NCBI GenBank assembly: GCA_965261715.1
Contig: OZ253471.1
Location: 2,621,422 to 2,685,421 of the forward strand
Length of the DNA stretch: 64,000 nucleotides
Direction of reading: 5' to 3'
DNA from: Dehalococcoidia bacterium
GTDB taxonomy: Bacteria; Chloroflexota; Dehalococcoidia; Bin125
A program made the translations under genes and the position numbers. The notes under the pieces are model-generated. The model saw only the letters and a program-made list of their open reading frames with translations. It ran no database searches and was not told where the DNA came from. Shown here in pieces: positions 2,096 through 62,398 of the stretch (its first letter is position 1; every line of letters starts with the position of its first letter).

Positions 2096-4282
2096 TCACT
2101 TCCTTGCCGCATTAATTTCTCCCTGAGAAACCATTGCACTGTGTAACCGAGGCAAAATGCGATCAATCCTGCTCTGGTATTCCGCGAACAGCCGTGGCAC
2201 ATCCCTCGATTCATTGTGTCGGCGTGACATGCTATGGGTCACTATCGTCGTAGCCAGAATCTCAGCCAACATGGTTCGGAATGACAACATCTCTTGGCCA
2301 GGCCAACCATCTTCTTCCGCTCCAAGATAACGTGCAACGACTCTATCGGTGGCATTGACGATAACTGTAGAGCCTTCTTGACTCAACCACGCCCGACGTT
2401 CAATAGCACTCTGTTCAAACCGGATGGTCATTCCCTGAGTCCCACGCGTCGTTACAGCGATAGCGGCACTCGCCGTTTCATTCGCTATGGCTGCGCGAAT
2501 CCGAGCGCGGGCGCCAACCCTATCGCCCCGAACGGTAATCGTCCACACCCCCGCCTCCCTCATATGATCAAACCCGAACGTGCTCACCTGCTTCACAATA
2601 GCTACGCCATCATCGCCACCTAGCTCCACGCCGGGAACTACATCGCCCTGGGCAACCATGTCCCACGGCGCATACAGCAGAACCCGACGGGTACGACCCT
2701 CTCTTATCGAATAGTTGCCGTGATCAAACTCAAGTTTCTGGACGGCAGGGAATTCCCTGTACTTCCAACGCAATGTGGCTTCTACACTCCTACTCCTGAA
2801 CCGGACGCGTACACGCGCTATAGCACCCTCGTCGCGACCGTCCACCGCGATTGTCTTGCTGTAATACCCGTCCCGCTCATTCAGTGTCTCCTTGAATTCT
2901 AGCGGGTCATTGCCAGCAGATTCAACCGTTACGGAGACTTCCGGAGCTCCTGGGAGTTGCTGAGCATTGGGATCAGGGCGGTAACGCACCACCAGCGTGC
3001 CAGGGTGTCCTGGGTCTACTATTCGGCTTGTCGGGATAATCGCCAGTCCGTAGGATTCTCCCGTATTTTCTATGTTGCCCTCATCGCCTCCGTCAAGTTC
3101 CTCCTCGCGAAGGTATTCAGACAACACCCGTTCAGCATCTCGAAGCCTCTTTTGGTTCTCTGCCGAGATTTGAGGAGCTCGCTCGCTCTGCGCCTCCTGT
3201 CGAAGTCGGTCGACATGTGGTTCAAGAAACTCCTCAATCGCTGCGTAGAGTGACTCAACAAAGGGATGCTCGTCCCTGCCTACAAGCCCCTCTCGATCTC
3301 TCGACACTAGTCGAATAGGGTTGTTATCCGCGGGGGGCAAACTGTTGGTGGCTCTCTGATCATAATCGCGAATCAAGTCCGCTATCGCGGGTACATCAAC
3401 AACTCCAAAGAGTCGGCCGAGGTGTAATGAATCTGGCTCTCGGCCAAATGTTCCTCCTCCGAACATCTCATACGCTGAGCCTTGTGAGGTGACCAAAAGG
3501 GAATGCCTCCAGTAGGCTCTATCCCTGCCGTCATCTAATGTGACAGGCGACTGCCACAAGGATACGTTTGCCTCGACGTTGCTTGCACCCGCAACTGTTA
3601 GCTTCGCATCGTGCGCAAGTTGTTTGCCAACGGGTTCATTGTAAGACGCTGCCTCGAAGTTTCCTTGCCCTCTGCGGAGCAAAATGCTCGCACGTCTACC
3701 ATTTGTAAGGATCGGTCGCAAAGCGTAGTGTCTGTTCAATAGTTCCTTAAGGTTCGCGTGTTGTGGAATCGATACTCGGCGGTGAACCTCTAGATGTACG
3801 GTGGTTCCATGCTTCCGTCCAGCGACAGATAATCCCGGTGTGATTACGGTCTCGGTAGTAGCGCCATTGTTGTACACAATCTCAAACGTAGTTTCTTCAC
3901 CATCTTTCCAAGACTTCCACGAAACCGGACCAAAATGCACAACGTCTTTACCTCCTCTTCCGAACAATCCTCTTACATTTGTCCCCTGGTCGAAGCCACT
4001 TGTCTGCGCACCAATAAAGCCAAGACGCTTCTGCATATCCTCGAGCGTCATTCCCTCGGCTTGATCTGTGATCGTGATACTCGGGTGGCTCTCACCTCGA
4101 CGGTTCTGCACATCGATAGTAATCTCTCCAGGTTCGCCCAATCGAGTATACGAATCATCCGCATTTGTTGTGAGCTCAACAATAGCGCGGACGATGTCGG
4201 ACCGCATCGCCCTTTCGATGTCGTCGCGAAAGCTCCTTTCGGTGAGCGTCAAGCTGCCGTGAATCACGCTTGAGTTAGCCAT
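2096..4282 (-). CDS. GHKL-superfamily ATPase domain protein (Hsp90/MORC-like N-terminal ATPase, ~500-aa C-terminal region of unknown function)
   Basis: 728-aa ORF in visibly lower-GC DNA; N-box ELTTNADDS (ExxxNAxD), G1-like ITDQAEGMTLEDM...GFIGAQTSG resembling the Hsp90 DxGxGMT...GTIAKSGT region, G2-like GLFGRGGKD; start overlaps the upstream ORF by 19 nt. Confidence 0.6.
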   Translation of the reverse strand: MANSSVIHGSLTLTERSFRDDIERAMRSDIVRAIVELTTNADDSYTRLGEPGEITIDVQNRRGESHPSITITDQAEGMTLEDMQKRLGFIGAQTSGFDQGTNVRGLFGRGGKDVVHFGPVSWKSWKDGEETTFEIVYNNGATTETVITPGLSVAGRKHGTTVHLEVHRRVSIPQHANLKELLNRHYALRPILTNGRRASILLRRGQGNFEAASYNEPVGKQLAHDAKLTVAGASNVEANVSLWQSPVTLDDGRDRAYWRHSLLVTSQGSAYEMFGGGTFGREPDSLHLGRLFGVVDVPAIADLIRDYDQRATNSLPPADNNPIRLVSRDREGLVGRDEHPFVESLYAAIEEFLEPHVDRLRQEAQSERAPQISAENQKRLRDAERVLSEYLREEELDGGDEGNIENTGESYGLAIIPTSRIVDPGHPGTLVVRYRPDPNAQQLPGAPEVSVTVESAGNDPLEFKETLNERDGYYSKTIAVDGRDEGAIARVRVRFRSRSVEATLRWKYREFPAVQKLEFDHGNYSIREGRTRRVLLYAPWDMVAQGDVVPGVELGGDDGVAIVKQVSTFGFDHMREAGVWTITVRGDRVGARARIRAAIANETASAAIAVTTRGTQGMTIRFEQSAIERRAWLSQEGSTVIVNATDRVVARYLGAEEDGWPGQEMLSFRTMLAEILATTIVTHSMSRRHNESRDVPRLFAEYQSRIDRILPRLHSAMVSQGEINAARK

Positions 4283-6082: not shown

Positions 6083-6868
6083 CTAGCCCTCTCCCGGAGG
6101 GAGAGGGAATGGGAGTTGGGAGAGGAACGATGTCACGGCGTCGTTGAAGGCGGGCGGGTTGTCGATGTTTGACGCGTGTCCGGCGTTGGGAACGACGACA
6201 TGGGTGTTGTTGGGGATCTTGTTGGCCATGTAGTCGGTGCCGGCGAGGAATGGCGTGTCGTTCTCGCCGACGAGCACGAGGGTCGGCTGGGGGATGGTCT
6301 TGAGCGACTGGATGATTCGGTTGTCGAACTGGGCCAACATGCCGCGGGCGGCTCGGGCGAGACCGTCGGCCGAGCGGTGCGTGGAGACGCGGACTTCCTC
6401 GGAGCCGCCGAGCGCTGCGAGGCCGTCACGCTCGAGCGCTTCGGCGCGAGGGACGGCCATGCCGGTGTTCCAGCCCTCGCGGGCCTTGGGGTTGTTGTAG
6501 CCGGGGCCGGTATCGAACAGCATCAGGGCTCGGGTGCGCTCGGGATGGGCGACCTGGAAGGCGAGCGCCATGTAGCCGCCCAGCGAGAGTCCGCCGATGA
6601 CGGCGCTATCGATGCCTTCGGCGTCGAGGATGGCGGCCATATCGGCGACAGTCTCGGCCTCGCTGTAGCAGGACTGATCTTCGGGAGAATCGGTCAGGCC
6701 GTGCCCGCGCATGTCCCAGACGATCAGGCGGTGATCGGCGGAAAGCAGGTCGATCTGGCCGGCCCACATCTGCGAGGTGGCGCCGTAGCCGTGCGAGAGG
6801 AGAATCGCGGGGCCTTCGCCGCTCGCTTCGTAGTAGATGCTGACTCCGTCGCGTTCGATGTTGGGCAC
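6083..6868 (-). CDS. alpha/beta hydrolase
   Basis: HGYG oxyanion motif and nucleophile elbow GLSLGG; likely GTG start preceded by GGGAGG; the longer table ORF (to 7003) has an N-terminus that is a translated MITE core. Confidence 0.65.
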   Translation of the reverse strand: MPNIERDGVSIYYEASGEGPAILLSHGYGATSQMWAGQIDLLSADHRLIVWDMRGHGLTDSPEDQSCYSEAETVADMAAILDAEGIDSAVIGGLSLGGYMALAFQVAHPERTRALMLFDTGPGYNNPKAREGWNTGMAVPRAEALERDGLAALGGSEEVRVSTHRSADGLARAARGMLAQFDNRIIQSLKTIPQPTLVLVGENDTPFLAGTDYMANKIPNNTHVVVPNAGHASNIDNPPAFNDAVTSFLSQLPFPLPPGEG

Positions 6869-6942
6869 TGCTGACCTCCCGTGGTCGTATCGGCTGTACT
6901 GCTGGCTAGGATAGGGGTCGAATTGCTGCCGTCGGGAGGAGG

Positions 6943-6988
6943 GGACCCCCTCAGCCTTCGGCAGCTCCCCCTTCAAGGGGGAGCGGAA
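6943..6988. repeat. MITE/REP-like core fragment (ccctcagccttcggcagctccccc...gggggagcgg)
   Basis: matches the core of repeat families A/B seen at many other sites. Confidence 0.6.
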
Positions 6989-7001
6989 ACAGGGGGAATC
7001 C

Positions 7002-8987
7002 ATGAAGACTCCGATTGGGCCGGAGATTGTGCTTGAGTTGGGCGGCGTGGGTTCGCCGGCGATTTCGCCGGATGGATCGGTGGTTGCCTATGTTCGCGGA
7101 CAGGTGGAGGACGGCACGCGGGTGTCGTGGATTGAGTGTGCTCCTTTCCAGGGCGGCGCGTCGAGGCGGTTGACTTCGGGCAACTCCGACTCTGGACCGG
7201 TCTGGTCTCCTGATGGATCGGTGTTGGCCTTTCTGCGGCCTTCGTCGGCTGAGGATGGTGCGCCTCGACAGATCTGGCTGCTTCCGACGGACGGCGGCGA
7301 GGCTCGCAGGCTGACGGACCTGGATCACTCTGTGGCGGGATTTGATTGGTTGCCGGATGGCTCGGGAATGATTGCGGTGGTCGATATCGATCCGCATCGC
7401 GGGAAGCGTGACGGCTCAAAGACGACAGTCGTTCGTGACACGTATTACCGGGGCGACACGCTGGGATATCGCGAGGGTGCCTGGCATCAGCTGTTTCGGA
7501 TTGACGCGTCGACGGGTACAGCGACGCAACTCACGACCGGGACATATAACCACGCGCATCCGATGGTCTCGCCGGATGGTCGCTGGGTGGCGTTTACGGC
7601 TGATCGCAACGTGGACCGCGAAGGTCGGCGTCCGTTTGGCTCTGAGTTGTGCGTGATGTCGACTCAAGGCGTTACTGGTGGCGGCCACGTGGAACGGCTG
7701 ACGCCGGGTGTGATGTCGGCGGGCCGGGCGTGTTGGTCGCCGGATGGGTTGGCGTTGGCGGTATCGGTGACCGATGCGTCGCAGCGTCACCAGGCGTACC
7801 TCGAGCGGATTGAGCGCTACAGCGGCAAGCGGACTCGATTGACAGACGATTCGATCAATCCGCAGTCGGGCTTCTTTCCGATATCCGGTCCTCCGACGAT
7901 GGTCTGGTCGGATGACGCGATCACGTTTGCGGCTGACATTCGTGGACGCTCGGGTGTGTATCGGGTGGCGGCCGACGGGTCGTCGGCGCCGGAGGCGATT
8001 CGGGCTGAGGCAGAACTGATTGGTGGCTTTGATGTGTCGGCCGACGGTGGGTCGATGGCGATCGTGTCGACGACTCCAGACGCTCCCGGCGAGATCGTGA
8101 CTTTGTGCGCTGGGGACCCTCCTCTGCCTTCGGCATCTCCCCCCAGAGGGGGGAGAAAAGAAACCGCGGTGACTAGTGCATCAGCCGATTTCGTTGGCGA
8201 GCATGAGATTGGTGACGTGGAGTTCTTCACGGTGGAGCGGGACGGCTGGGAGATTCCTTGTGGGCTGATGTATCCGCCGGGATTCGATCCTGAACAGTCG
8301 TATCCGCTCGTGATAGAGATTCACGGTGGCCCGAACGGTTTCTTTGGCGAGGGATTCAATGTGTTGCACCAGGTGATCGCTGGCGCGGGCTATCTGGTGC
8401 TGTTTGTCAATCCGCGCGGCTCGTCGACGTATGGCGCGGACTTCACCGATGCCGTGACCGAAGACTGGGGCGGTGAGGATTCGCTCGATCTGCTTCATGC
8501 GCTGGATGTGGTCTGTGAGCGTCTGTATGTGGATGCGTCGCGGTTGGGCGTTCATGGGTATTCGTACGGTGGATACATGACGACATGGTTGATTGGTCAT
8601 GTCGATAGATTCAAGGCGGCGATCGCGGGCGCTCCGGTGGTGAACCTGTGGTCGATGTGGGGCGTATCGGATATTGGTCCGTCGTGGGGCTCGTATCAGT
8701 GGGGCGACATGCCGGACAGCAACTTTAACTGGTATCGGGAGCGTTCGCCGATTACATACGTCGACAACGTGCGCTGTCCGGTGCTGATTATGCACGGCGA
8801 GTCAGACTGGCGCGTGCCGATCTCGCAGGGCGAGGAGTATTTCGCCGGGCTGCGGTACCGGGGCAAGAAAGCGGAGATGGTGCGCTTCCCGGGCTGCTCG
8901 CATTTGATGTTCCGGGTGGCTGATCCTGCGCTGGTCAAGGAGTACTACGAGCGGATGATTGGGTGGTTTGACCGCTATGTGAAGTGA
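7002..8987 (+). CDS. S9 family peptidase (prolyl oligopeptidase/acylaminoacyl-peptidase type; N-terminal beta-propeller plus C-terminal alpha/beta hydrolase)
   Basis: 661-aa ORF; repeated SPDG propeller motifs; catalytic GYSYGG nucleophile elbow; His near C-terminus. Confidence 0.8.
   Translation: MKTPIGPEIVLELGGVGSPAISPDGSVVAYVRGQVEDGTRVSWIECAPFQGGASRRLTSGNSDSGPVWSPDGSVLAFLRPSSAEDGAPRQIWLLPTDGGEARRLTDLDHSVAGFDWLPDGSGMIAVVDIDPHRGKRDGSKTTVVRDTYYRGDTLGYREGAWHQLFRIDASTGTATQLTTGTYNHAHPMVSPDGRWVAFTADRNVDREGRRPFGSELCVMSTQGVTGGGHVERLTPGVMSAGRACWSPDGLALAVSVTDASQRHQAYLERIERYSGKRTRLTDDSINPQSGFFPISGPPTMVWSDDAITFAADIRGRSGVYRVAADGSSAPEAIRAEAELIGGFDVSADGGSMAIVSTTPDAPGEIVTLCAGDPPLPSASPPRGGRKETAVTSASADFVGEHEIGDVEFFTVERDGWEIPCGLMYPPGFDPEQSYPLVIEIHGGPNGFFGEGFNVLHQVIAGAGYLVLFVNPRGSSTYGADFTDAVTEDWGGEDSLDLLHALDVVCERLYVDASRLGVHGYSYGGYMTTWLIGHVDRFKAAIAGAPVVNLWSMWGVSDIGPSWGSYQWGDMPDSNFNWYRERSPITYVDNVRCPVLIMHGESDWRVPISQGEEYFAGLRYRGKKAEMVRFPGCSHLMFRVADPALVKEYYERMIGWFDRYVK
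8113..8155. repeat. MITE family B core embedded in-frame inside the S9 peptidase CDS
   Basis: cctctgccttcggcatctccccccagaggggggag translated as PLPSASPPRGGR at the propeller/catalytic-domain junction. Confidence 0.6.
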
Positions 8988-9031
8988 AGCCAAGGGCGAG
9001 ATCCCCATCAGGCCGCTGTTCAGGTGAGCGT

Positions 9032-9152
9032 CTTAGGAATCCTCTGAACAACTGGTGTCGCAGGCTGAGCGAGGACCCCCCTTCAGCCTTCGGCAGCTTC
9101 CCCCGCAGAGGGGGGAAGCGGGGATCGGAGTTGTTCAGAGCATTCTTAGGAG
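9032..9152. repeat. MITE family A, complete copy (~120 bp) with terminal inverted repeats TAGGAATCCTCTGAACAAC / GTTGTTCAGAGCATTCTTAGGA
   Basis: perfect TIRs flanking the core ccttcagccttcggcagcttcccccgcagaggggggaagcgggga; near-identical copies at 30618-30731 and 62147-62264. Confidence 0.75.
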
Positions 9153-9162
9153 TCCAAGAGTC

Positions 9163-9197
9163 GTCATTCCCGCGCGTCGTCGCGGGTATGACGGGGG
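9163..9197. repeat. hairpin repeat family D (cgtcattcccgcg-N-cgcgggtatgacg)
   Basis: same hairpin occurs at 42853-43015, 47350-47510 and 62323-62358. Confidence 0.55.
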
Positions 9198-9200
9198 ATT

Positions 9201-10550
9201 CTACTTCTGAGGGCGGGTGATCGCGGCGATCGGGCGGAGGGTTCGGCGGAGGACTGCTTTGGCGGTCGGTACGTTGAATACGGGCGACTTCATTCTCAGG
9301 TACATCGTGCCGAAGATGATGCTGATCACGATCGCTGAGAGGCCCATCAGGAGGAACACGTCCTGCTCGCCGATGATGTCCGCGACTGCCCCAAAGCCTA
9401 GTCCGGTGAAGGATTGGACTCCGAAGGGGAGGAATGTCAGTGCTGTGACGCGGCCGTGAAACTCGGGATTTGACTGGCGGATGATTTCGGCCGTGTTCAG
9501 GGTCTGGAATCCTGAGAATCCCGAACCGACCAGGAAGACCACGGGCAGCATGACCAGCGCGTTGGGCGTCACTCCGAGCAGCGCGACACCGAGTCCGAAG
9601 GCGCAGCTCATGATCAGGAGGATGCCGCCCGACCATCGAGTGCCGACGACGCCGGCTACTGAGAGTCCAACAATGAATGAGCCAACTCCCATCGGCCAGG
9701 TCACCAGTCCAAGATTGCGCGGATCGATGTCGAACACGTGCTCAAGCAAGCCGGGCAGGATGTTCTGGTAGGGACCTGCGGTTGCCGAGACCAACAACAG
9801 GGTGGCGAGGAGCACACGCAGTCGCGGTTGGGACCAGGCATAGCGAAGGCCGAGCAGCAACTCGCGCGTGACTGATCCTCTGGGAACGTTGCGTGGGCTG
9901 CCGGGCGGCATCAGGAAGAGCGCGAAGATCGTCACGACCAGGATGCCGGACATGATGAAGTAGGCGCCCTCGGCTCGGATGAAGGGCGCGAATAGCAGCA
10001 ACGATCCGATCACGGGGCCGACCGACTGCGGGAAGGTCAGACCGGTCTGCAGCAGCGCGACGCCGTTGCCGACGAGACGAGGCGAGACGATATCGGCGAC
10101 GTAGGCCCGGCGCGAGGGCCCGGTGAACGCAAAGCACGCGCCAAGGAAGAGGGTGCTGACGGTCAGCCAGATGACCTCGATGCGTCCGATCAGAATGAGG
10201 AAACCGATCAAGGCGTAGTTGATCGCGATTGCGGTCTGGGCCAGGGCGATCAATCGACGTTTGGAGAGCCGGTCGGTCATGGCGCCGGCGAAGGGTCCGA
10301 TGAAGAACCAGGCGATGCCGTTGCCGGCCATCGCGATGGCGACCGACGAGTTGGTTCCGCCCAGATCGAAGGCAACGATTGGCAGGACAGTGAAGTTCAT
10401 CGAGAAGGCCATGAAGGCCATCACGGTGAGCATCCAGTGCAGCCGGAACGTGCCGATGCCGAAGGCCTCGAAAGTTTGTCCAATGCCAGCGCGAATCATG
10501 TTCCGTGATCGTATGCTGTGGTCAACGTTTACGTCAGATGTTGGAGTCAA
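9201..10550 (-). CDS. MFS transporter
   Basis: 449-aa ORF with about 12 hydrophobic segments and an MFS-like pattern; alternative start about 17 codons downstream (MIRAGIG). Confidence 0.7.
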   Translation of the reverse strand: MTPTSDVNVDHSIRSRNMIRAGIGQTFEAFGIGTFRLHWMLTVMAFMAFSMNFTVLPIVAFDLGGTNSSVAIAMAGNGIAWFFIGPFAGAMTDRLSKRRLIALAQTAIAINYALIGFLILIGRIEVIWLTVSTLFLGACFAFTGPSRRAYVADIVSPRLVGNGVALLQTGLTFPQSVGPVIGSLLLFAPFIRAEGAYFIMSGILVVTIFALFLMPPGSPRNVPRGSVTRELLLGLRYAWSQPRLRVLLATLLLVSATAGPYQNILPGLLEHVFDIDPRNLGLVTWPMGVGSFIVGLSVAGVVGTRWSGGILLIMSCAFGLGVALLGVTPNALVMLPVVFLVGSGFSGFQTLNTAEIIRQSNPEFHGRVTALTFLPFGVQSFTGLGFGAVADIIGEQDVFLLMGLSAIVISIIFGTMYLRMKSPVFNVPTAKAVLRRTLRPIAAITRPQK

Positions 10551-10558
10551 CTCGGTAA

Positions 10559-11104
10559 GTGAGTAGGGCTATGGATGTCGATCAGGCCATCCGAGAGCGA
10601 CGAACGATCGGGGTGTTCTCGCAGCGGGAGGTGTCACCGGCGTTGGTGGAAGAGCTGGTTGAGGCCGCGCGCTGGGCGCCGACTCACAAGCACACCGAGC
10701 CGTGGCGATTCCATGTGGTGTCGGGGTCGGCGCGAGAAGCGATGTGTGAGGCGATTCTCGACGGCGGCGGCGAATTCACCAAGGACCCTCGCGGCAAGCT
10801 GATGCGCTCACCGCTGTTCGTGGCGGTGACGCAGGAGGCGGTATTGGATGATCCGGTGCGGGATCGGGAGGACTACGCGGCCGTCTGCTGCGCGGTCCAG
10901 AACATGATGCTGGCGGCGACGTCGAGGGGTCTGGCGACGAAGTGGAGCACGGGGGCGCTGGCGGAGAATGCTGCGGCGAAGCGCTGGCTGGGGATCGGCG
11001 AGCAGGACCGGATAGTGGCGTATTTGTATCTGGGCTATGCACCGGAAGCGATGCGGGAGATGCCGGCTGAGCGTCGGCCGGCGGAGGTGGTTTGGCGGGA
11101 GTAG
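10559..11104 (+). CDS. nitroreductase family protein
   Basis: 181-aa ORF; nitroreductase fold signatures (RRTIGVF, ARWAPTHKHTEPWRFHVV). Confidence 0.7.
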   Translation: MSRAMDVDQAIRERRTIGVFSQREVSPALVEELVEAARWAPTHKHTEPWRFHVVSGSAREAMCEAILDGGGEFTKDPRGKLMRSPLFVAVTQEAVLDDPVRDREDYAAVCCAVQNMMLAATSRGLATKWSTGALAENAAAKRWLGIGEQDRIVAYLYLGYAPEAMREMPAERRPAEVVWRE

Positions 11105-11965
11105 CGTCGGGCACAACGACATCCTTCGTGATTCCTGCGTAGGCAGGAATCACGAGGCGCCCAACGCTGTGCGGGCATCTACCTGTCGCCGTCCTCGGAT
11201 CTCCGCGCGCGGTCGCTGAGCAACGGCAAAGGCTTCGCTGCCGGCGGGCGGGCGGAGGATCGCGATTCCTGCCTGCGCAGGAATGACGGAGTTGTGGTCC
11301 TCGATTGGAGAGAGTGGATGAACTTCGCGATCGCATCAGAGGTAAGTTCGCGATCCTGGCGTATCTGTACCTGGGCTACGCGCCGGAGGCAATGCGGGAG
11401 ATACCGGCGGAGCGTCGAGCGGCTGAGGTGATCTGGCGGGGGTTGCGTCAGACACAACGACATCCTTCGTGATTCCTGCCTACGCAGGAATCACGAGGCG
11501 CCCAACGCTGTGCGGGCATCTACCTGTCGCCGTCCTCGGATCTCCGCGCGCGGTCGCTGAGCAACGGCAAAGGCCTCGCTGCCGGCGGGCGGGCGGAGGA
11601 TCGCGATTCCTGCCTGCGCAGGAATGACGGAGTTGTGGTCCTCGATTGAAGAGTGTGGATGAACTTCGCGATCGCATCAGAGGTAAGTTCGCGATCGTGG
11701 CGTATCTATACCTGGGCTACGCGCCGGAGGCAATGCGGGCGATGCCGGCAGAGCGTCGGCCGGCGGGCGGCGGTAGCGACGGACACAACGACATACCTCG
11801 TCATTCCTGCGCACGCAGGAATCACGATCCTCTTGCTGCCGCCGGGCAGCGACCCCAATTGCCGTCGCTCAGAGATTGCGCGCGGGCTCTCCCAGAACGG
11901 CTATTGGATGTACTCCGAATCAAATTGGGTGCTTCGTGATTCCTGCCTACGCAGGAATGACGGAA
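11015..11965. repeat. tandem array (~344-bp unit, about 2.7 copies) that begins inside the 3' end of the nitroreductase gene; each unit carries two ~25-bp hairpins (ATTCCTGC-N3-GCAGGAAT)
   Basis: landmark gacacaacgacatccttcgtgattcctgc recurs at ~11108 and ~11452 with a diverged third copy at ~11785; the gene tail VAYLYLGYAPEAMREMPAERRPAEV is re-encoded twice. Confidence 0.7.
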
Positions 11966-11974
11966 GTGCGGTGC

Positions 11975-12616
11975 TTACTGGTGGGAGTGGATAAATTGGG
12001 AGATCGCTTCCGCTGCTAGCTCGCGGTTGCTTTCCTCGGTGTGGCCGGAGCGCTTTCTGGGGATGAGGCCGTGGTTGCCGTCGGGGATCCATTTGAGCTT
12101 GATGTTGGGTGAGAGGTCGTAGGCCTCGACCTCCTCACGGGTTCCGTATTCGTCTCGTTCTCCCTGGACGATGAGCGTGGGCGTGGCCATCTGCTCGAGG
12201 TGGATGGTTGCTGCCCGCGAGGGATCGTTGGGGGCGTGGAACGGGTAGCTGATGCAGACCATGCCGGCTGGCTCGGCGGCGTCGGCCAGGTAGCTGGCGA
12301 TGCGTCCGCCCATGCTTCGGCCTCCGATGAACAGCTTGGAGGTTGGCACTCCCTGCTCGGCGAGCTGTTGGATGACCTGAACCCAGGTTCCGGCGAGGAC
12401 ATCCTCGGGATCAGGCGGCCAGGGACGCCGGCCAGCCTCAATAGCCCGGCGCATGTAAGGGAAGTCGAAGCGGGCGACGCGAACGCCGCGTTCGGCGATC
12501 AGCTTGGCAAGGTGTGCGGTACTGGGATGACTTGCGGATGCGCCCGCGCCGTGGGTCAACGCCAGCGTCGGCGCGGGCGGTGACTTGGGCAGATTCCAGG
12601 TCAGAGGCGTTTCCAT
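11975..12616 (-). CDS. alpha/beta hydrolase (small predicted hydrolase family with GRSMGG nucleophile elbow)
   Basis: 213-aa ORF; GxSxG motif GRSMGG; acid and His positions consistent with a catalytic triad. Confidence 0.55.
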   Translation of the reverse strand: METPLTWNLPKSPPAPTLALTHGAGASASHPSTAHLAKLIAERGVRVARFDFPYMRRAIEAGRRPWPPDPEDVLAGTWVQVIQQLAEQGVPTSKLFIGGRSMGGRIASYLADAAEPAGMVCISYPFHAPNDPSRAATIHLEQMATPTLIVQGERDEYGTREEVEAYDLSPNIKLKWIPDGNHGLIPRKRSGHTEESNRELAAEAISQFIHSHQ

Positions 12617-12649
12617 AGGATCAAGGTCGGGTTTTCCATCTGAGGGGCG

Positions 12650-12705
12650 GAAGGGACCCCCTCAGCCTGCGGCAGCTCCCCCTGCAAGGGGGAGCGGGAG
12701 GGCTT
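12650..12705. repeat. MITE/REP-like core fragment
   Basis: ccctcagcctgcggcagctccccctgcaagggggagcggga. Confidence 0.55.
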
Positions 12706-13792
12706 ATGACGTTCGCGCGATGATTGGGGCCATCTCGTCGACCAGGTCGTTGGCGGCAGCAGGATCGAGCGCGGTCAGGGCCAGGTGATCAACGCCGTGG
12801 GACTCGGCGAGTTCCGACTTCTCGATGATTTGATCGGGCGTGCCGATGATCATGTCGTTGAGCCGGTCGGCGGTGATGAAGCGCTCCTCGCCTTCCTTGA
12901 GGTAGCTGTAATGACCCTCGTGGACATCGAGGTAGAGGCGGTCGAGCGGGCGGCCTCGCTCCTCGGCGTATTCGGTGATGTACTGGTTGTACTCGGCCGC
13001 GACGTCGGGGTTGACGCCCTTGAGGTTGCCGCCCCAGCCGCCGTACTCCGACTCCCAGAGGGTGTGGTTGTAGACGGCGGCGACCGCGCCGGCGCGGTGC
13101 AGGACGCGCTCGGACATGAGGTCCTCGCCTTCCTGCATCACGCAGGCGCCGGTCAGTCCGACGGTGTAGGGCTTCTCGGTCGAGCGACCGGCAGACTGCG
13201 CGGCCTGCTCGATGATTGGGAATCCGCTGTCCAACCACGGACCGGTACCGGAGGTGACCCAGCCGTCGCCGACCTCGCCGACGACCGCGGTGGCTCGCGG
13301 GCCGTTGGCGGCGATGTAGACCGGGATGTGATCCTTGATGTTGTAGAAGTCGGGATGGTCCGGGTGGATCAGCCGAATCCAGGTCTCGCGGCCGGTAACA
13401 TTGTCGGTGTGGAGGATGTCATTGCCGTCGAGCAGGTCGCGGACTTGCTGGGCGTACTCGCGGAACTTCTTGACCGGATACGAGGGCAAACCCATCGTGT
13501 TGCGTCCGGTGTAGCCGGTGCCGAGCGCGAGAATCGTGCGTCCAGGCGCGAGCTTGTTGATCGTCGCAATGGCGGAGGCGGTGACCGGCGCGATCCGGTT
13601 GGAGGGAATCGAAACCAGCGTGCCCAGCTTGATCGTCGAGGTGCGTTCGGCGGCCAGCGCCATGGCCGCGTAGCAGTCGGACCAGATCAGCTGAGAGTCG
13701 GGGAACCAGGCGTGTGTGAAGCCCGCCTCCTCGGCGCGGACGACTTCCTTCCACATGTCGATGTAGGTGGGAACGAGCAGTCCGTAGTCCAT
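12704..13792 (-). CDS. LLM-class (probably F420-dependent) oxidoreductase, paralog 1
   Basis: 362-aa ORF; TIKLGT and GTGYTGRN LLM signatures; tandem paralog of the next gene. Confidence 0.75.
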   Translation of the reverse strand: MDYGLLVPTYIDMWKEVVRAEEAGFTHAWFPDSQLIWSDCYAAMALAAERTSTIKLGTLVSIPSNRIAPVTASAIATINKLAPGRTILALGTGYTGRNTMGLPSYPVKKFREYAQQVRDLLDGNDILHTDNVTGRETWIRLIHPDHPDFYNIKDHIPVYIAANGPRATAVVGEVGDGWVTSGTGPWLDSGFPIIEQAAQSAGRSTEKPYTVGLTGACVMQEGEDLMSERVLHRAGAVAAVYNHTLWESEYGGWGGNLKGVNPDVAAEYNQYITEYAEERGRPLDRLYLDVHEGHYSYLKEGEERFITADRLNDMIIGTPDQIIEKSELAESHGVDHLALTALDPAAANDLVDEMAPIIARTS

Positions 13793-13826
13793 ATTGGTTG
13801 CCCTTCGATTTGTCTGGGTGGTTCGG

Positions 13827-14915
13827 CTAGCCGCGCTTTTGGATGACTTCGCGGGAGAAGTCGTCGATGATTTCTCGGGCGCCGGCGGGGTCGTTGGCGG
13901 TCAGCGCGATGTTGTCGACGCCGATTGATTCGAGGTGTTCGAGTTTCTCGATGATCTCAGACCCAGAGCCGACCAGGCTGCGCTCAAGCACCTGCGGGTA
14001 GATGAAGCGCTCCTCGCCGGGCTTGAGGTAGACCATGTGGCCCTCGTGGACATCGAGGTAGAGGCGGTCCTCGGGCGTGCCCTTGGCGGCGGAGTACTCG
14101 CGGATGTAGTTGTTGTACTCGCCGGCGAGGTCAGGGTTGTCCATGCCGAGGTTGGCGCCGGGGCCGTAGGCGGCCTCCCACATCGCGTGTACGCCGGGCA
14201 CCATGGCCGGTCCGAGGATGCTCATGACTCGCTGGGATTCGACCGACTCGCCGTCTTGCAGGACGAGTCCAGAAGTGAGGCCGACCGTGTACGGCTTATC
14301 GGTCGAGCGTCCAGCGGCTTCTGCCGCGGCGGCGATCGCAGGGAAGGACTGCTGCGCGTTGAGTCCCATGCCGGTCGTGACCCAGCCGTCGCCGACCTGT
14401 CCCACGACCTCCATCGCGCGCGGCCCGTTAGCCGCAACGTAGATGGGAATGAAGTCGTCGAGGTTGAGGAATTCGGAATGCTGGCCGTGGATCAGCCGGA
14501 TCCAGCGCTCGTTGCCGGTGACATCGTCGGTGTAGAGCACGTCCTCACCATTGAGCAGTCCGCGCACCTGCTGGGCGTACTCGCGGTAGCGCTTGATCGG
14601 GTAGGCGGGCAGGCCCATGGTGTTGCGCCCGGTGTAGCCGGTGCCGATACCGAGGATGATCCGTCCCGGCGCCAACTTGTTGAGCGAAGCGACGGCAGAG
14701 GCAGTGACGGGCGCGATCCGGTTGGAAGGGATGGCGACGAGGGTGCCCAGCTTGATCGTCGAGGTGTGATGCGCGGCGAGGGCCATCGCCGCGTAGACGT
14801 CGGAGTAGATCAGTTGTGAGTCGTAGAACCAGGCATGGGTGAAGCCGGCGGCCTCGGCGCGCTGCACTTCCTGATAGGCGTTGATCCAACTGGGGATTCC
14901 GATGCCGTAGTCCAT
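13827..14915 (-). CDS. LLM-class (probably F420-dependent) oxidoreductase, paralog 2
   Basis: 362-aa ORF collinear with the previous gene (roughly 60-65% aa identity by eye). Confidence 0.75.
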   Translation of the reverse strand: MDYGIGIPSWINAYQEVQRAEAAGFTHAWFYDSQLIYSDVYAAMALAAHHTSTIKLGTLVAIPSNRIAPVTASAVASLNKLAPGRIILGIGTGYTGRNTMGLPAYPIKRYREYAQQVRGLLNGEDVLYTDDVTGNERWIRLIHGQHSEFLNLDDFIPIYVAANGPRAMEVVGQVGDGWVTTGMGLNAQQSFPAIAAAAEAAGRSTDKPYTVGLTSGLVLQDGESVESQRVMSILGPAMVPGVHAMWEAAYGPGANLGMDNPDLAGEYNNYIREYSAAKGTPEDRLYLDVHEGHMVYLKPGEERFIYPQVLERSLVGSGSEIIEKLEHLESIGVDNIALTANDPAGAREIIDDFSREVIQKRG

Positions 14916-15019
14916 TGGTGGCTCCTTGCACTCGTTGGCTGGTCAGAGGCTAATGGGTGCGGGGACTGCCGCGGAATGAGTCGATGGAGGTGAGAGAAGT
15001 GGAAGCGCGATCGAAAACA

Positions 15020-15320
15020 ATGGAACAAAGAAATGGATCGTGTGCATTGTTTGGTGCATTTCCTCGTTGCTGAGACGCGAAATGGATCGGAGAAATGGAT
15101 CGCGTGCATTGTTTGGTGCATTTCCACGTCGCTGAGACGCGAAATGGATCGGAGAAATGGATCGCGTGCATTGTTTGGTGCATTTCCACGTCGCTGAGAC
15201 GCGAAATGGATCGGAGAAATGGATCGCATGCATTGTTTGGCGCATTTCCACGTCGCTGAGACGCGAAATGGATCAGAGAAATGGATCACGCGCATTGTTT
15301 GGCGCATTTTCCGCGTCGGC
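15020..15320. repeat. tandem repeat, 62-bp unit x ~4.7 (agaaatggatcgcgtgcattgtttggtgcatttccacgtcgctgagacgcgaaatggatcgg)
   Basis: head-to-tail copies starting near 15029, 15091, 15153, 15215 and 15277; lies between the 3' end of the 15273..17015 gene and the 5' region of the 13827..14915 gene. Confidence 0.8.
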
Positions 15321-19794: not shown

Positions 19795-20153
19795 CGATCG
19801 CCCCCCCTTCTCCCCCCTCGCGGGGGAGATGCCGGAGGCAGAGGGGGGTCTCTCCATTCCAAGGCGTATCTGGTCGCTGGCGGAGGACCCCCCCCCTCTG
19901 TCACTTCGTGACATCTCCCCCCGCAAGGGGGGGAGAGGGGATTTGTGAGTTTTGCAAAGGTCTCCTTGCGGGGGAGATGCCGAAGGCAGAGGGGGGTTCC
20001 CTATCGCAATGCCTATCTGGTCGTCGCCGGCGACCCCCCCTCTGTCACTCCATGACATGTCCCCCCGCACGGGGGGGAGAGCGGAACTGAGAGTTTTGCA
20101 AAGGTCTCCGCGAGGGGGGAAGCGGGGAATGGGGTTATTCAGAGCATTCCTAG
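19795..20153. repeat. cluster of two MITE family B copies plus a family A right end
   Basis: gggggagatgccg(a/g)aggcagagggggg ... cccctctgtcac(t/c)(t/c)cgtgacatctcccc units joined by the linker ttgtgagttttgcaaaggtctcc; ends with ggggttattcagagcattcctag. Confidence 0.75.
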
Positions 20154-42852: not shown

Positions 42853-43015
42853 GTGTTCCTAAATTCGTCATTCCCGCGCCCCGTCGCGGGAATCTCGCCG
42901 AGTTCTACACCGACGCTCGAGCATGAGGAAGCGCGGTCGTTTCGATCGCACAGCCGGCTCCAGGCCTTCCTGCCGAGCACAGCGAGATACCCGCGGCGGA
43001 GCGCGGGTATGACGG
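42853..43015. repeat. pair of family D hairpins in inverted orientation bounding ~100 bp (MITE-like)
   Basis: cgtcattcccgcgccccgtcgcgggaatctcgc ... cgagatacccgcggcggagcgcgggtatgacgga. Confidence 0.6.
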
Positions 43016-47349: not shown

Positions 47350-47510
47350 TTCCGTCATACCCGCGCTTGCCGCGGGTATCTCGCTGCGAGCAGCAAGAAT
47401 GCCAAGTACTAGCCAAGCGACTCGGGGGCGGACAATTTACTCGGGAACTAACGTCGGTGCAGAACTCGGCGAGATTCCCGCGGCGGAGCGCGGGTATGAC
47501 GATGAAACGA
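47350..47510. repeat. pair of family D hairpins in inverted orientation (MITE-like)
   Basis: cttccgtcatacccgcgcttgccgcgggtatctcgc ... gagattcccgcggcggagcgcgggtatgacgatg. Confidence 0.6.
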
Positions 47511-50062: not shown

Positions 50063-51209
50063 GAGCGATCATAGGCGTATTGGTTCGAGTTGCTGAGGGA
50101 GCGCGTGATGCATCGCAATATGGGACAGCGGTCGTTGGCGGAGGCCTGGTTGCCGGAGCGACTGGGGAGCAATCGCCGCCTGGAGGGCGTCAACGAGGTG
50201 GTCGACTGGAGCTGTTTTGAGCGCTTGTTGGCCGAGATTCACTCGGCCCGCACGGGTCGCCCCAGCTATCCGCCGTTGCTGATGTGCAAGGTCCTGCTGC
50301 TGCAGCAGTGGTACAACCTGAGCGATGTCGAGCTGGAGGAGGCGTTGGCCGACCGGCTCTCGTTCCGCCGCTGCGTCGGTCTGGGTCTGGAGGACCCGAC
50401 GCCGGACCACTCGACGATGAGCCGTTTCCGCGAGACGCTGGTCGAGCGCGGTCTGGGCCAGGCGCTGCTGGCCGAGTTCGAGCGCCAGTTGGACGAGCGC
50501 GGCCTGTTGCTCAAGCAGGGCACGCTGCTGGACGCGAGTGTGGTCGAGGCGCAGGTGCGGCGGCCGCCGCACGCGGCCGGCCGGGGGGCGCGGCACGCGC
50601 GCGACCCGGAGGCGAGCTGGACGGCGACCGGGACCCGGCGCGGCCGGCGCTCGTGGTTCGGCTACAAGATTCACTGCGGGGTGGATCTGGGCAGCGGCTT
50701 CGTGCGGCGCGCCTTCCTAACCCCGGCCAACATCAATGAAAGCGAGGTGGCGGACACACTGATCTGCGCTGACGAGCGTGCGGTCTACGCGGACAAGGCG
50801 TATGACTCGAAGCGGCGCCGTCAGCGGCTGCGCGGGCGTGGGGTCAAGGACCGGATCAAGCATCGGGCGAACAAGTGGCATCCGCAGCTGCCGCACTGGC
50901 AGGAGCGGCGCAATCAGCTGATCGAACCGCGGCGCAGCGCCGTGGAGCGGCTCTTCGGCACGCTCAAGCGCAGTTACGGCTACCGGCGCGTGCGCTGTCG
51001 CGGCGTGGCCCGCAACGAACTGGAGCTGTGCGTCAAAGTGCTCGCCTACAACCTGCGCAAGGCGGACCAGTTGAGCGCCGCGGCCGCCTGAAGTCGAAGC
51101 GACAAGCGGCCGGCCGCGGCAGGCCGGCCGCGGCAGACCGGCCACGACCGCCCCCACCCGGCGACCGACGCGACCGGCGCGCAAAGTAGACCAAGCAAAT
51201 CACTCGCTC
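50063..51209 (+). mobile_element. IS5-family insertion sequence (~1.15 kb) with imperfect terminal inverted repeats
   Basis: left end gagcgatcataggcgtattgg versus right end (reverse complement) gagcgagtgatttgcttgg; a single transposase gene inside; boundaries approximate. Confidence 0.55.
50090..51091 (+). CDS. IS5-family DDE transposase
   Basis: LLMCKVLLLQQWYNLSDVELEEALADRLSFRRCVGL closely parallels the IS5 N-terminal region; DDE_Tnp_1-type C-terminal part; 333 aa. Confidence 0.85.
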   Translation: MLRERVMHRNMGQRSLAEAWLPERLGSNRRLEGVNEVVDWSCFERLLAEIHSARTGRPSYPPLLMCKVLLLQQWYNLSDVELEEALADRLSFRRCVGLGLEDPTPDHSTMSRFRETLVERGLGQALLAEFERQLDERGLLLKQGTLLDASVVEAQVRRPPHAAGRGARHARDPEASWTATGTRRGRRSWFGYKIHCGVDLGSGFVRRAFLTPANINESEVADTLICADERAVYADKAYDSKRRRQRLRGRGVKDRIKHRANKWHPQLPHWQERRNQLIEPRRSAVERLFGTLKRSYGYRRVRCRGVARNELELCVKVLAYNLRKADQLSAAAA

Positions 51210-56922: not shown

Positions 56923-56927
56923 AGCGC

Positions 56928-62322: not shown

Positions 62323-62358
62323 AACGTGCAGAAAGCGGCGAGATACCCGCGGCAAGCG
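62323..62358. repeat. family D hairpin
   Basis: gcgagatacccgcggcaagcgcgggtatgacg. Confidence 0.55.
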
Positions 62359-62398
62359 CGGGTATGACGAAACTGGAGCAAGAACCACGCTGTCTCAG

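Follow-up and report, generated by a model that had tools for sequence, protein, structure and literature searches.

A still-recombining three-unit tandem array with copied gene tails and hairpin pairs between two convergent genes of a Chloroflexota bacterium

The strongest tandem array across the 64-kb window, i.e. the whole stretch of DNA that was analysed, lies at the 3' end of a nitroreductase gene (gene A), which converges there with a gene coding for an Abhydrolase_11-family hydrolase (gene B). The array is a real, inherited and still-recombining variant of known ingredients and not a new kind of system. It is probably a non-coding structural variant that arose by three-fold tandem amplification of the convergent-gene junction and was later reshaped by recombination. 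We found no evidence for a programmed function.

Tandem Repeats Finder (TRF) reported positions 11016-11827 as a tandem repeat with a period of 341, 2.4 copies, 90% matches and a score of 1316. The original prediction, which had described a unit of ~344 bp present in ~2.7 copies, was right about the periodicity and the head-to-tail arrangement, but the period is 341 bp and the array consists of three full units spanning positions 11011 to ~12030. Each unit is made of the final 30 nitroreductase codons, a pair of inverted hairpins (H1 and H2) separated by a 114-116-nt spacer, and the last ~17-20 codons of the convergent gene B on the minus strand; in unit 3, this closing element is the real end of gene B. 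The three copies of the nitroreductase tail are present as quoted. The third copy, which had been described as diverged, has lost 10 nt from its gene tail and has a reverse-complement spacer, which together put it out of register, but it is complete rather than partial. The tail of the second gene, the inversion of the spacer and the two-haplotype structure were absent from the earlier description.

Features of the array and of the flanking genes. Type I and type II designate the two junction haplotypes proposed in the text.
Feature	Position	Strand	Description
Gene A, nitroreductase	10571..11104	+	177 aa; Pfam PF00881, E=1.2e-25
Unit 1	11011..11351		341 bp; real A tail, 22-nt flank, H1, inverted type II spacer, H2, pseudo B-tail b1
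Expressed gene A tail c1 (last 30 codons)	11015-11104	+	First element of unit 1
H1, unit 1	11127..11154	+	CGTG-ATTCCTGC-GTAG-GCAGGAAT-CACG; 13-bp stem; DNA fold -15.7 kcal/mol, z=-7.1
Spacer, unit 1	11151..11264		114 nt; type II orientation; twin at 11492-11605, 113/114 identical
H2, unit 1	11261..11288	-	CGTC-tagged on the minus strand (CGTCATTCCTGCGCAGGCAGGAATCGC)
Pseudo gene B tail b1	11289..11351	-	…DRELTSDAIAKFIHSLQS, stop lost; twin b2 at 11630-11692
Unit 2	11352..11692		341 bp; pseudo A-tail c2, flipped-loop H1, type II spacer, H2, pseudo B-tail b2
Silent nitroreductase tail c2	11356..11445	+	ILAYLYLGYAPEAMREIPAERRAAEVIWRG, no stop; 87/90 identical to the expressed tail of L136
H1, unit 2	11468..11495	+	Loop CTAC, the flipped form of GTAG
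H2, unit 2	11602..11629	-	CGTC-tagged on the minus strand
Unit 3	11693..12030		Pseudo A-tail c3 (10-nt deletion), H1, forward type I spacer, H2, real gene B tail
Silent nitroreductase tail c3	11697..11776	+	Frame lost after codon ~22 via the 10-nt deletion
H1, unit 3	11799..11826	+	CGTCATTCCTGCGCACGCAGGAATCAC; CGTC-tagged on the plus strand
Spacer, unit 3	11823..11938		116 nt, in type I orientation; ~70% identity to spacers 1 and 2 when reverse-complemented
H2, unit 3	11935..11962	-	CGTC-tagged on the minus strand
Gene B, Abhydrolase_11-family hydrolase	11975..12616	-	213 aa; Pfam PF20408, E=1.2e-60

Comparison of the units, which differ among themselves by 1-30%, revealed a mosaic. Units 1 and 2 share ~98-99% identity when each position x is compared to x+341 from 11112 to 11410, whereas the spacer of unit 3 is ~69% alike and inverted; it aligns to spacers 1 and 2 as a reverse complement (84/120 identical) and gives no direct alignment. 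The six hairpins bound blocks of 114, ~186, 114, ~173 and 116 bp. The junction between the gene B tail of one unit and the gene A tail of the next (B'-A'), TTCGCGATC(C/G)TGGCG, was found twice in the window and likewise in L136, a near-clonal strain, and was absent from L001, the closest distinct relative. This junction can be read as a B part joined to an A part of the L001/L136 type (GGATCGTGGCG) with at most ~3 nt of shared sequence. A scan of JGI metagenomes returned zero matches to it, and the metagenome scan with protein alignment returned only relatives of at most 46% identity, too distant to be of use for this array. The slipped or unequal duplication proposed originally agrees with the periodicity, with this novel junction and with the single unit of L001 compared to three here. 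However, a single slippage cannot give the mosaic, because units 1 and 2 are nearly identical yet carry an inverted and diverged spacer relative to unit 3, and because they carry tail types that are real in other strains.

The six ATTCCTGC-N4-GCAGGAAT hairpins are located at 11131, 11265, 11472, 11606, 11803 and 11939. Their number was predicted correctly, but the proposed 11-bp stem and N3 loop gave way to an 8-bp stem core, which reaches 13 bp in the H1 hairpins of the first two units, and a 4-nt loop. A search for further copies found none outside the array in the 64 kb, even at 3 mismatches (chance expectation 0-0.23), and this ATTCCTGC sub-type is thus confined to the array locus within the window. 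Four of the six hairpins bear a CGTC tag (H1 of unit 3 on the plus strand and all three H2 on the minus strand), and H1 of units 1 and 2 have CGTG instead; these two are exact reverse complements of each other over 30 nt. Folded as DNA, the array hairpins have z-scores of -2.4 to -8.4. Furthermore, the H1-spacer-H2 module of unit 1 folds as a single long hairpin (-106.6 kcal/mol, z=-4.7), and the long-hairpin folds of the inverted-pair modules have z-scores of -4.7 and -6.7. CGTC-tagged hairpins are abundant in the window, 11 compared to 0.1 in shuffles, and include two further inverted doublets (42866/43014 and 47353/47501); the spacers of different doublets are unrelated to one another. The family crosses phyla and has an oriented consensus.

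The suggestion that these hairpins are REP-type sites holds and can be refined: they are CGTC-tagged REPs of dRS3/NTS type that occur in inverted pairs. CGTC-1 REPs consist of a CGTC tag (or TGTC/CCTC), an 8-bp stem starting with AT and a 4-nt loop (Di Nocera et al. 2013, PMC3733652). The array hairpins share these three features, as well as a mostly head-to-head dimeric arrangement and a location between convergent genes. Unlike CGTC-1 REPs, they have a CCTGC stem instead of CCCGC, a CAC/CGC tail that retains only the first C of CCA (the CCA tail is found in relatives from other phyla whose stem is the same), a long dimer spacer of 114-116 nt and, in H1 of units 1 and 2, a CGTG that gives a perfect 13-bp palindrome. 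In Neisseria, the NTS hairpin is cut by the GIY-YIG-type nuclease Ssn, and cutting and binding by SsnA are reported to depend critically on an upstream GTC and on the cytosine directly after the palindrome (Nat Commun 2025, PMC11893778). The array hairpins are similarly oriented, with both the upstream GTC and the post-palindrome cytosine, and belong to a family found in many phyla, but neither the NTS nor the SRM search pattern, as published, matches them, owing to the CCTGC/GCAGG pair; the sole match to the SRM pattern in the window is a canonical hairpin at 42866-42897. In regular-expression and phmmer searches, neither the 64-kb window nor the orthologous loci yielded an ssn or GIY-YIG (cd10448) gene. 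By sequence, the array hairpins belong to the cross-phylum family of CGTC-tagged REPs and Neisseria dRS3-NTS elements, and nuclease cutting here is putative.

REPINs are inverted REP doublets mobilised by RAYT transposases. Like REPINs, the modules described here comprise two inverted REPs and a spacer folding as one long hairpin, and several doublets are dispersed in the genome; unlike them, they carry a CGTC tag instead of GTAG, and the spacers of the doublets are mutually unrelated. No RAYT (Y1 transposase), reverse transcriptase or recombinase was found among the ORFs of the window, and no enzyme acting on the array hairpins was found in the 64 kb. By inspection, Xer/dif-like and integron attC sites were rejected, as the 8-bp stem and 4-nt loop are unfit and no recombinase lies nearby. 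The window contains no tRNA or tmRNA gene; therefore, the array is not the remnant of an integration site. Rfam gave no match at gathering thresholds over the whole window and only chance-level matches (E up to 10) at 10900-12100, and promoter and intrinsic-terminator scans gave zero matches between 10400 and 12800.

The array is inherited and varies in copy number. A second contig (L007) showed 0 mismatches to the window over 4906 bp, array included, and the near-clonal closed 75x genome of L136 carries a homologous array of three units and six hairpins with 13-, 3- and 70-nt deletions, the 70-nt loss falling in c2. TRF calls no array in L136 because of these indels, and its units were resolved by alignment. 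The number of modules is three in the window, L007 and L136, one in L001 (94% aa identity) and zero in L004 and L133; the single-copy relative envisaged in the original prediction does exist. Read at the DNA level in two strains plus the single-unit relative, the array measures 198, 785 or 870 bp, with 870 vs 785 bp between the clonal strains. In L004 and L133, and apparently also in the P0049 lineage, genes A and B overlap by 4 bp. The junction of L132 holds one loop-less palindrome built from the outer half-sites, and those of L002/3, L005, L009 and L134/5 have other hairpin or IS fillings. The stems of L009 were considered as a case of compensatory evolution, but are better explained by a different doublet sub-family, the same as that of the window's doublet at 62.3 kb.

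Unit 3 is identical in L136 and the window, and matches the single unit of L001 at 180/198 positions (spacer, 108/116). Conversely, the spacer of unit 1 matches those of unit 3 and L001 at 85/122-125 positions, solely as a reverse complement, and units 1 and 2 form an outgroup to the pair of unit 3 and L001. Unit 3 thus appears to be the ancestral intergenic module. Its conservation (91-93%) exceeds that of third-codon positions (77-84% identical), which hints at some constraint on the sequence that a purely neutral account does not need.

Among relatives, the tail of each of the two genes comes in two forms, and type II is the genuine end of gene A in P0115 and P0117 and of gene B in P0127, P0129 and P0133. 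Specifically, the RRAAEVIWRG end of c2 is the real gene end in P0115, and the FIHSLQ end of the pseudo B-tail is the real end in P0127 and P0129. The pseudo gene B end DRELTSDAIAKFIHSLQ occurs twice in the array, and the real gene B ends in NRELAAEAISQFIHSHQ followed by the stop. With gene B tails aligned in a fixed codon register, pseudo and real tails differ mostly by synonymous changes or by substitutions also present in orthologues, and the pseudo B-tail differs from known real type II tails at 5/17 residues. Gene A orthologues of 177 aa begin at the same MDVD, and the nitroreductase tail variants differ by 3 conservative residues at the extreme C-terminus. The stop codon of c2 is mutated to TTG. 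A small protein produced from the fused tails was also considered and rejected, since the 55- and 97-aa ORFs begin at TTG and are broken by the L136 deletions; no genes were called over these ORFs.

We observed that the expressed tail of the nitroreductase was swapped between the two near-clonal strains. The expressed tail of L136 is identical to the silent c2 of the window at 87/90 positions, compared to 77/90 for c1. Gene A of L136 and of the window differ at 3/440 positions in the body and 14/94 in the tail (Fisher p=5e-9), and the divergence step starts at 11014, the edge of the unit. These observations lend indirect support to the proposal that the silent tails could serve as templates for C-terminal variation. 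Within the window, c1 is unlike c2 over a 45-nt patch (11069 to 11111) that no single-crossover model fitted, and the comparison with L136 explains this patch as a later allelic replacement; c1 also bears six private synonymous changes without a source inside the array. Furthermore, 4/11 substitutions between the arrays of the window and L136 are states borrowed from another unit, and the window differs from the clonal strain in three discrete divergent patches within 8.6 kb.

From these observations we infer the following order of events. The nitroreductase and hydrolase genes would originally have abutted or overlapped by 4 bp, and two CGTC-tagged REP hairpins of the dRS3/NTS type, paired as an inverted, REPIN-like doublet, would have come between them. 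Illegitimate recombination at the level of microhomology may then have duplicated a 341-bp segment whose limits fall within the 3' ends of genes A and B. No other duplication leaves the two genes intact, hence the dead back-to-back tails of both genes in the extra units. The array now holds two diverged junction haplotypes: type II (units 1 and 2), with an inverted spacer, an RRAAEVIWRG-type A tail and a FIHSLQ-type B tail, and type I (unit 3), with the layout seen in the one-unit relative L001. Units 1 and 2 would be later duplicates of each other by RecA-type unequal crossover, the palindromic hairpins, acting as inverted repeats, could have flipped the spacer and the 4-nt loop, and patches may have been traded between units by gene conversion. 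At least once in the population, the expressed tail has been swapped with the repeated segment or replaced at its edge. The array probably has no selected function. The array resembles other tandem duplication-amplifications in its head-to-tail units, novel junction, variable copy number and concerted evolution between units. It departs from them in being unusually long-lived, with inheritance across strains and a divergence between units of up to 30%, and in combining two haplotypes, one of which is internally inverted.

The divergence between types I and II speaks against this amplification account, as it reaches ~30%, about twice the neutral in-place decay since the split from L001. Either the duplication is old and was lost by L001, or type II was imported. 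The pseudo B-tail retains all conserved residues, which argues against long decay, although the test is weak (~2.3 hits expected, 0 seen); a once-functional allele fits better. It is possible, though we consider it the less probable course, that the array is a composite in which the type II units come from the orthologous junction of a different strain or species, acquired by transformation-type recombination, for example through a single crossover of a donor fragment carrying the B'-A' junction, or of a circularised 341-bp fragment, beside the resident type I. The functional type II ends in related genomes, the mostly synonymous or orthologue-attested differences between pseudo and real tails, the outgroup position of units 1 and 2 and the heavy recombination in the population, with its three patches per 8.6 kb between clonal strains, all agree with such an import, and NTS/dRS3 hairpins modulate just this kind of integration in Neisseria. 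However, a tandem-duplication or circularisation step is still required to create the B'-A' junction, no donor was identified, the 5 residues by which the pseudo B-tail departs from known type II tails count against it, and an old array sorted into single-copy descendants predicts an identical present state.

Could amplification have produced a variation device comparable to those of Neisseria? NIME arrays consist of dRS3 hairpins flanking RS blocks of 19-214 bp (Bentley et al. 2007, PMC1797815). The hairpin described here is nearly the same 20-mer (ATTCCT-N8-AGGAAT vs ATTCCC-N8-GGGAAT), and, as in NIME arrays, where 20-bp inverted repeats bound blocks of ~50-150 bp, dRS3-type repeats bound the blocks of the array, those of 114-116 and ~186 bp falling within the RS size range. 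Likewise, the array lies downstream of genes, varies in length between strains and adjoins a gene segment with extra divergence, and an allele-replacement tract ends inside it. In contrast to NIME arrays, the host belongs to the Chloroflexota, there are just three units without any link to surface antigens, one of the block types consists of a pair of gene tails fused together, in place of an anonymous RS family, and the array is a true head-to-tail duplication rather than a genome-wide mosaic of many RS families. We consider it unlikely that the locus is a NIME-like device outside Neisseria, in which dRS3/NTS-type hairpins would bound modules containing silent 3' cassettes of both genes, would set the limits of recombination tracts, possibly via an Ssn-type nuclease that acts on single strands of DNA entering the cell, and would allow expressed C-termini to be traded for array copies or for the alleles of other strains. 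If true, a mechanism regarded as peculiar to Neisseria would also operate in an unrelated phylum and on housekeeping enzymes.

Even less likely is a programmed cassette system that would keep the silent tails as alternative C-termini of the nitroreductase and the hydrolase and use the hairpins as recombination signals. The equivalence of the L136 expressed tail and c2, the step at the unit edge, the dimorphism of both genes' tails and the precedent of the NIME arrays and silent C-terminal cassettes (pilS, mafB/fhaB) of Neisseria would fit such a system. Nevertheless, the 3 varying residues are conservative and lie at the very C-terminus of a redox enzyme of the cytoplasm, decay is under way in the silent copies (stop lost in c2, 10-nt deletion in c3, 70 nt missing from c2 of L136), no recombinase is encoded nearby, and most relatives have no array. 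A diversity-generating retroelement, with the gene tail as variable repeat, the downstream copy as template repeat and the hairpin as homing structure, has next to no credibility: the likeness is superficial, limited to a re-copied 3' end followed by a hairpin, the mutation spectrum already refutes it (4/16 differences at template adenines, in either direction), the 64 kb encode no reverse transcriptase, and the tail of the other gene was copied too. Finally, an assembly artefact in the form of a repeat expanded by the assembler found no supporting point and can be practically dismissed given the identical array of L007, the differently deleted one of the closed L136 genome, and units 1-30% apart that are not collapsed or expanded copies of one sequence.

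Under the preferred account of amplification followed by recombination, the array accounts for the spurious ORFs (VIPAYAGIT / SFLRRQESR peptides) found in annotation, and likewise explains frameshifted or read-through nitroreductase calls in related assemblies. It also provides a clean natural example of the rule that, where two convergent genes abut, a tandem duplication spanning them has to include the ends of both, and shows that such duplications can persist and go on recombining. NIME-type arrays were not observed outside Neisseria in a 2007 comparative study; for Chloroflexota, a small NIME-like array is now documented, together with CGTC-tagged hairpins of the dRS3/NTS type and their inverted doublets. 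As two near-clonal strains differ exactly at the edge of the repeat, this locus is well suited to test the proposed role of hairpins in delimiting recombination tracts.

Tandem Repeats Finder confirmed a tandem array at the end of the nitroreductase gene (gene A) as the strongest tandem repeat of the 64-kb window (11016–11827, 2.4 copies, 90% matches, score 1316), with a period of 341 bp instead of the ~344 bp proposed in the original prediction. Relative to spacers 1 and 2, the third spacer (11823–11938) is reverse-complemented, with 84/120 identical positions in that orientation and no direct alignment; the array contains an inversion bounded by inverted palindromes. The third copy is complete, although its silent A tail (c3) carries a 10-nt deletion, and the full array thus comprises three units from 11011 to ~12030, not ~2.7 copies with a diverged third one. 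Each unit runs from a gene A tail through a 22-nt flank, hairpin H1, a spacer and hairpin H2 to an antisense tail of the convergent hydrolase gene (gene B). The gene B tail copies, encoded on the minus strand at 11289–11351 and 11630–11692 as DRELTSDAIAKFIHSLQ, duplicate the real gene B end (NRELAAEAISQFIHSHQ and stop). The predicted unit content was thus right for the A tail, all three quoted nitroreductase tail peptides being present in the window, and for the two hairpins, but missed the tail of gene B.

Features of the window, state of the A/B junction in relatives, and same-family arrays elsewhere
Locus	Feature	Position	Description
Window	Gene A, nitroreductase	10571–11104	PF00881
Window	Gene B, Abhydrolase_11 family	11975–12616	Minus strand; PF20408
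Window	Six array hairpins	11131, 11265, 11472, 11606, 11803, 11939	ATTCCTGC-N(2-6)-GCAGGAAT
Window	Inverted CGTC doublet	42866–42896 with 42984–43014	Arms ~120–135 bp apart
Window	Inverted CGTC doublet	47353–47382 with 47471–47501	Arms ~120–135 bp apart
Window	Other CGTC-tagged (NTS/dRS3-like) hairpins	9162–9193; 62340–62369	
Window	Two tandem paralogous luciferase-like monooxygenase (LLM) genes	12704–13792; 13827–14915	~72% identical DNA
Window	At least three further LLM genes	4861; 18692; 48237	
Window	62-bp unit x 4.7	15029–15318	95% match; 3' of second LLM gene; also in L001 and L136; yields spurious minus-strand ORFs with recurring peptide
Window	Second dispersed palindromic family, GGGACCCCCTCAGCCTTCGGCAGCTCCCCCTTCAAGGGGGAGCGG	6934–6986; 9066–9118; 12645–12697; partial 8106–8158	Intergenic
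Window	144-bp unit x 2.1	19816–20118	Composition resembling GGGACCCCCTCAGCCTTCGGCAGCTCCCCCTTCAAGGGGGAGCGG family
Window	IS5-type DDE transposase	50090–51091	DDE_Tnp_1 + DUF772
Window	Restriction-modification-like cluster	54579–58871	TnsA-like endonuclease N domain, ResIII helicase, N6/N4 DNA methylase
L004, L133	A/B junction		A 85–86% aa identity; A and B overlap 4 bp, zero intergenic DNA
L001	A/B junction		A 94% aa identity; 198 bp, exactly one unit, spacer oriented as window unit 3
L132	A/B junction	2707–2730	A 83% aa identity; one loop-less doubly tagged perfect palindrome CGTCATTCCTGC/GCAGGAATGACG (CGTCATTCCTGCGCAGGAATGACG)
L009	A/B junction		A 86% aa identity; inverted doublet of other sub-family (ATTGCCGC, ATACCCGCG stems), same type as window 62.3 kb
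L002/3, L005, L134/5	A/B junction		A 83–88% aa identity; other GGGGGAGC-type palindrome, 48-bp tandem repeats, IS in L005; gap occupied by GGGGGAGCAAATT palindromes related to GGGACCCCCTCAGCCTTCGGCAGCTCCCCCTTCAAGGGGGAGCGG
L010 (GCA_022824765.1)	A/B junction	3700–3920	A 82% aa identity; own pseudo-copy of last ~55 A codons (ASKWSTGALDENSEARRWLGIGERDRIGAFLHLGYLREEIWEMPAERRPAEVVWHR and stop) between real A and B, without hairpins
L056 (Flavobacteriaceae GF1)	Family hairpins in array after typA	6469–7878	301 bp x 4.7
L088	Same-family hairpin array	1–431	186 bp x 2.3
L058	Same-family hairpin array	169–478	129 bp x 2.4

A pattern search over the window recovered the six hairpins, two per unit, that had been predicted, and no further match elsewhere in the window even with three mismatches (expected 0 to 0.23). 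As single-stranded DNA they are predicted to fold at −8.4 to −15.7 kcal/mol (z −2.4 to −8.4 versus shuffles). Within every unit the H1 tag is on the plus and the H2 tag on the minus strand, which makes the pair a REPIN-like inverted doublet; H1, spacer and H2 together can fold as a single long hairpin (z = −4.7 and −6.7). H1 of unit 1 and H1 of unit 2 are exact reverse complements over 30 nt and differ by a loop flip only (GTAG versus CTAC).

The exact core was found at at least 120 loci of a one-genome-per-species collection, the matches listed including Bacteroidota, Nitrospirota, Chloroflexota, Rickettsiales, candidate phyla and others. By our own arithmetic, chance would account for ~140 matches to 16 specified bases in 596 Gb; despite this, 123 of the 138 core matches listed share an oriented consensus, TGTCATTCCTGCGAAGGCAGGAATCCA, that extends past the bases searched for, and the hairpin family is therefore real. 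The consensus matches two published elements, in agreement with the REP-type nature originally suggested. In Neisseria, the small GIY-YIG nuclease SsnA cuts the dRS3/NTS element, CGTCATTCCCGCGMAVGCGGGAATCYRG, as single-stranded DNA just 5' of the hairpin, and the element modulates how transforming DNA integrates (PMC11893778). The CGTC-1 REP family, with a CGTC tag, an 8-bp stem starting with AT, a 4-nt loop and a short tail, occurs mostly as head-to-head dimers, with clusters in Neisseria and Wolbachia (PMC3733652). In the array hairpins CCTGC/GCAGG replaces CCCGC/GCGGG, and because of this pair they miss the published degenerate pattern of Ssn-related motifs (SRM), a pattern that does match a canonical element at 42866–42897. 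A structure-based scan detected 11 CGTC-tagged hairpins in the window versus 0.1 in shuffles; one of those outside the array is doubly tagged and lies in the convergent peptidase/MFS gap. Also among the 11 are the doublets 42866/43014 and 47353/47501, which have ~24 nt of inner flank in common and spacers unlike the array module. The 64 kb contains no GIY-YIG gene, Y1 transposase, reverse transcriptase or site-specific recombinase. The array was assigned to no Rfam family, and its identification as a DGR was likewise rejected.

Homologues at 60–94% identity come from Chloroflexota/Dehalococcoidia metagenome-assembled genomes, and every relative read keeps the order MFS transporter (−), A (+), B (−) and two LLM genes. 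Comparison of these loci shows genes A and B abutting in the ancestral arrangement. The varied fillings among relatives indicate that the junction was invaded repeatedly and independently, and the independent pseudo-copy in L010 that tail duplication arose at this junction more than once. The L132 palindrome corresponds to the outer half-sites of H1 and H2 and represents a doublet that collapsed or else the stage preceding a spacer-bearing insertion. As for whether related strains have one copy, the nearest relative, L001, does, and unit 3 is the orthologue of its single module (180/198 identical overall, 108/116 in the spacer). The hairpin doublet is thus single-copy in the nearest relative, and the window's array is head-to-tail and inherited, with a novel B'/A' junction between adjoining units.

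Homologous proteins revealed two versions of the junction. Among the 11 members of the nitroreductase 90% identity cluster, P0115 is identical to the window protein at 174/177 residues, all three differences falling within the last ten, and its C-terminus, AERRAAEVIWRG, is the sequence of the silent tail of unit 2 (c2), while P0117 reads through into SVGHNDILRDSCVGRNHEAPNAVRASTCRRPRISARGR, that is, the unit 1 flank, hairpin and spacer in inverted orientation. Hydrolases P0127, P0129 and P0133 (200–202/213 identical) end in AIAEFI(H/N)SLQ, as do the pseudo B tails b1 and b2; P0131 and the L001 hydrolase end in AISQFIQSH(Q/L), matching the real B tail of the window in type. Since these tail types are real gene ends in relatives, two junction versions exist, and the window array carries both: type I (unit 3), with a forward spacer and an AISQFIHSHQ-type B tail, and type II (units 1–2), with an inverted spacer, an RRAAEVIWRG A tail and an FIHSLQ B tail. 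The type II spacer is ~69% identical to unit 3 and to L001 alike, making it an outgroup to that pair.

P0115 is encoded on a closed 3.53-Mb, 75x contig (L136) that is clonal with the window, without differences over 8400–10600 (2.2 kb; compared 6571–15190). Differences are confined to three patches in 8.6 kb, at 7600–8300 (~9%), ~10786–11750 and ~12150–13400 (~5%), a pattern indicating very frequent homologous recombination in the population. L136 has a homologous array of three units and six hairpins and the array is also on a second contig, which led us to reject an assembly artefact. The A/B gap is 785 bp in L136 versus 870 bp in the window. Unit 1 of L136 has a 13-nt deletion just upstream of H1, b1 a 3-nt deletion, c2 is mostly removed by a 70-nt deletion and one loop has a single additional base; unit 3 is identical. 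Furthermore, 4/11 inter-array substitutions (11575, 11616, 11649, 11654) are states of another unit, the expected signature of gene conversion between units. The array thus undergoes both deletions and inter-unit conversion.

The expressed A tail of L136 is 87/90 identical to silent c2 of the window but 77/90 to its expressed tail (c1). Gene A differs at 3/440 body versus 14/94 tail positions (Fisher p=5e-9), with a step at 11014, where the repeat unit has its left border; the expressed tail has changed type between these two clonal strains precisely at that border. At 2/3 body differences the state in L136 is the majority or outgroup one; the window lineage is therefore the probable recipient, and probably received a new allele over ~10786–11108 at least. 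Identity between positions x and x+341 is patchy, ~83% across c1 versus c2, 98–99% over 11112–11410, and then the register is lost. Units 1 and 2 were near-identical full duplicates in the common ancestor of both genomes and c1 was overwritten later, which explains this mosaic.

We propose that a 341-bp segment was duplicated by illegitimate recombination at the level of microhomology. Its junction, TTCGCGATCGTGGCG, can be divided into a B part, TTCGCG, and an A part, GATCGTGGCG (L001/L136 allele), sharing at most ~3 nt; both tails would have been copied because the two genes are spared only if the segment ends within the 3' end of each. Inverted hairpins may then have mediated the spacer and loop flips, the unit 1/unit 2 pair could derive from unequal crossover, and homologous recombination of the ordinary kind, among units as well as with other strains, would account for the remainder. 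Slipped or unequal recombination of the gene end plus hairpin element, as first suggested, is consistent with the head-to-tail order, novel junction and single unit in L001, but does not cover the mosaic and the inversion. As to the origin of type II, it may have evolved as an orthologous allele and been imported, a reading favoured by the ~30% divergence, by substitutions of a coding-like pattern and by the occurrence of real alleles of this type in relatives. Even so, a duplication or circularisation is needed at some point to form the B'/A' junction. Alternatively, type II may have diverged inside an old array, which L001 would have lost afterwards.

We found no evidence of a role for the extra units from tail decay, ORF conservation or protein variants. 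The idea that extra tails template C-terminal variation agrees with the c2-type tail expressed in L136, but the silent copies are decaying (stop lost in c2, frameshift in c3, deletions in L136) and three conservative replacements separate the nitroreductase variants; the fused-tail ORFs lack conservation in L136. The ancestral module is 91–93% identical between the window and L001, above third codon positions (16–23% divergent); the B-LLM intergenic region is likewise conserved (95%), and we do not over-read the former value. The doublet may serve to end transcripts from both directions or to bind a protein or a nuclease; no intrinsic-terminator pattern occurs at the locus.

The array is best filed under kinds already known, as a tandem amplification and as an array of REP doublets of the CGTC/dRS3 type. 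Among described architectures the neisserial intergenic mosaic element (NIME) comes closest: dRS3 hairpins flank 19–214-bp blocks, and the arrays vary between strains and are linked to additional divergence in adjacent genes and to ends of allele-replacement tracts (PMC1797815). The window array resembles NIME in hairpin type, block sizes, strain-to-strain dynamics and adjacent-gene divergence, but is a true local duplication, holds gene tails and resides in Chloroflexota. That silent C-terminal cassettes are exchanged here within hairpin bounds, in the manner of NIME but in a non-neisserial phylum, seems quite unlikely. NIME were stated in 2007 to be absent outside Neisseria (PMC1797815); the L056, L088 and L058 arrays, in distant phyla, are NIME-like arrays outside that genus.
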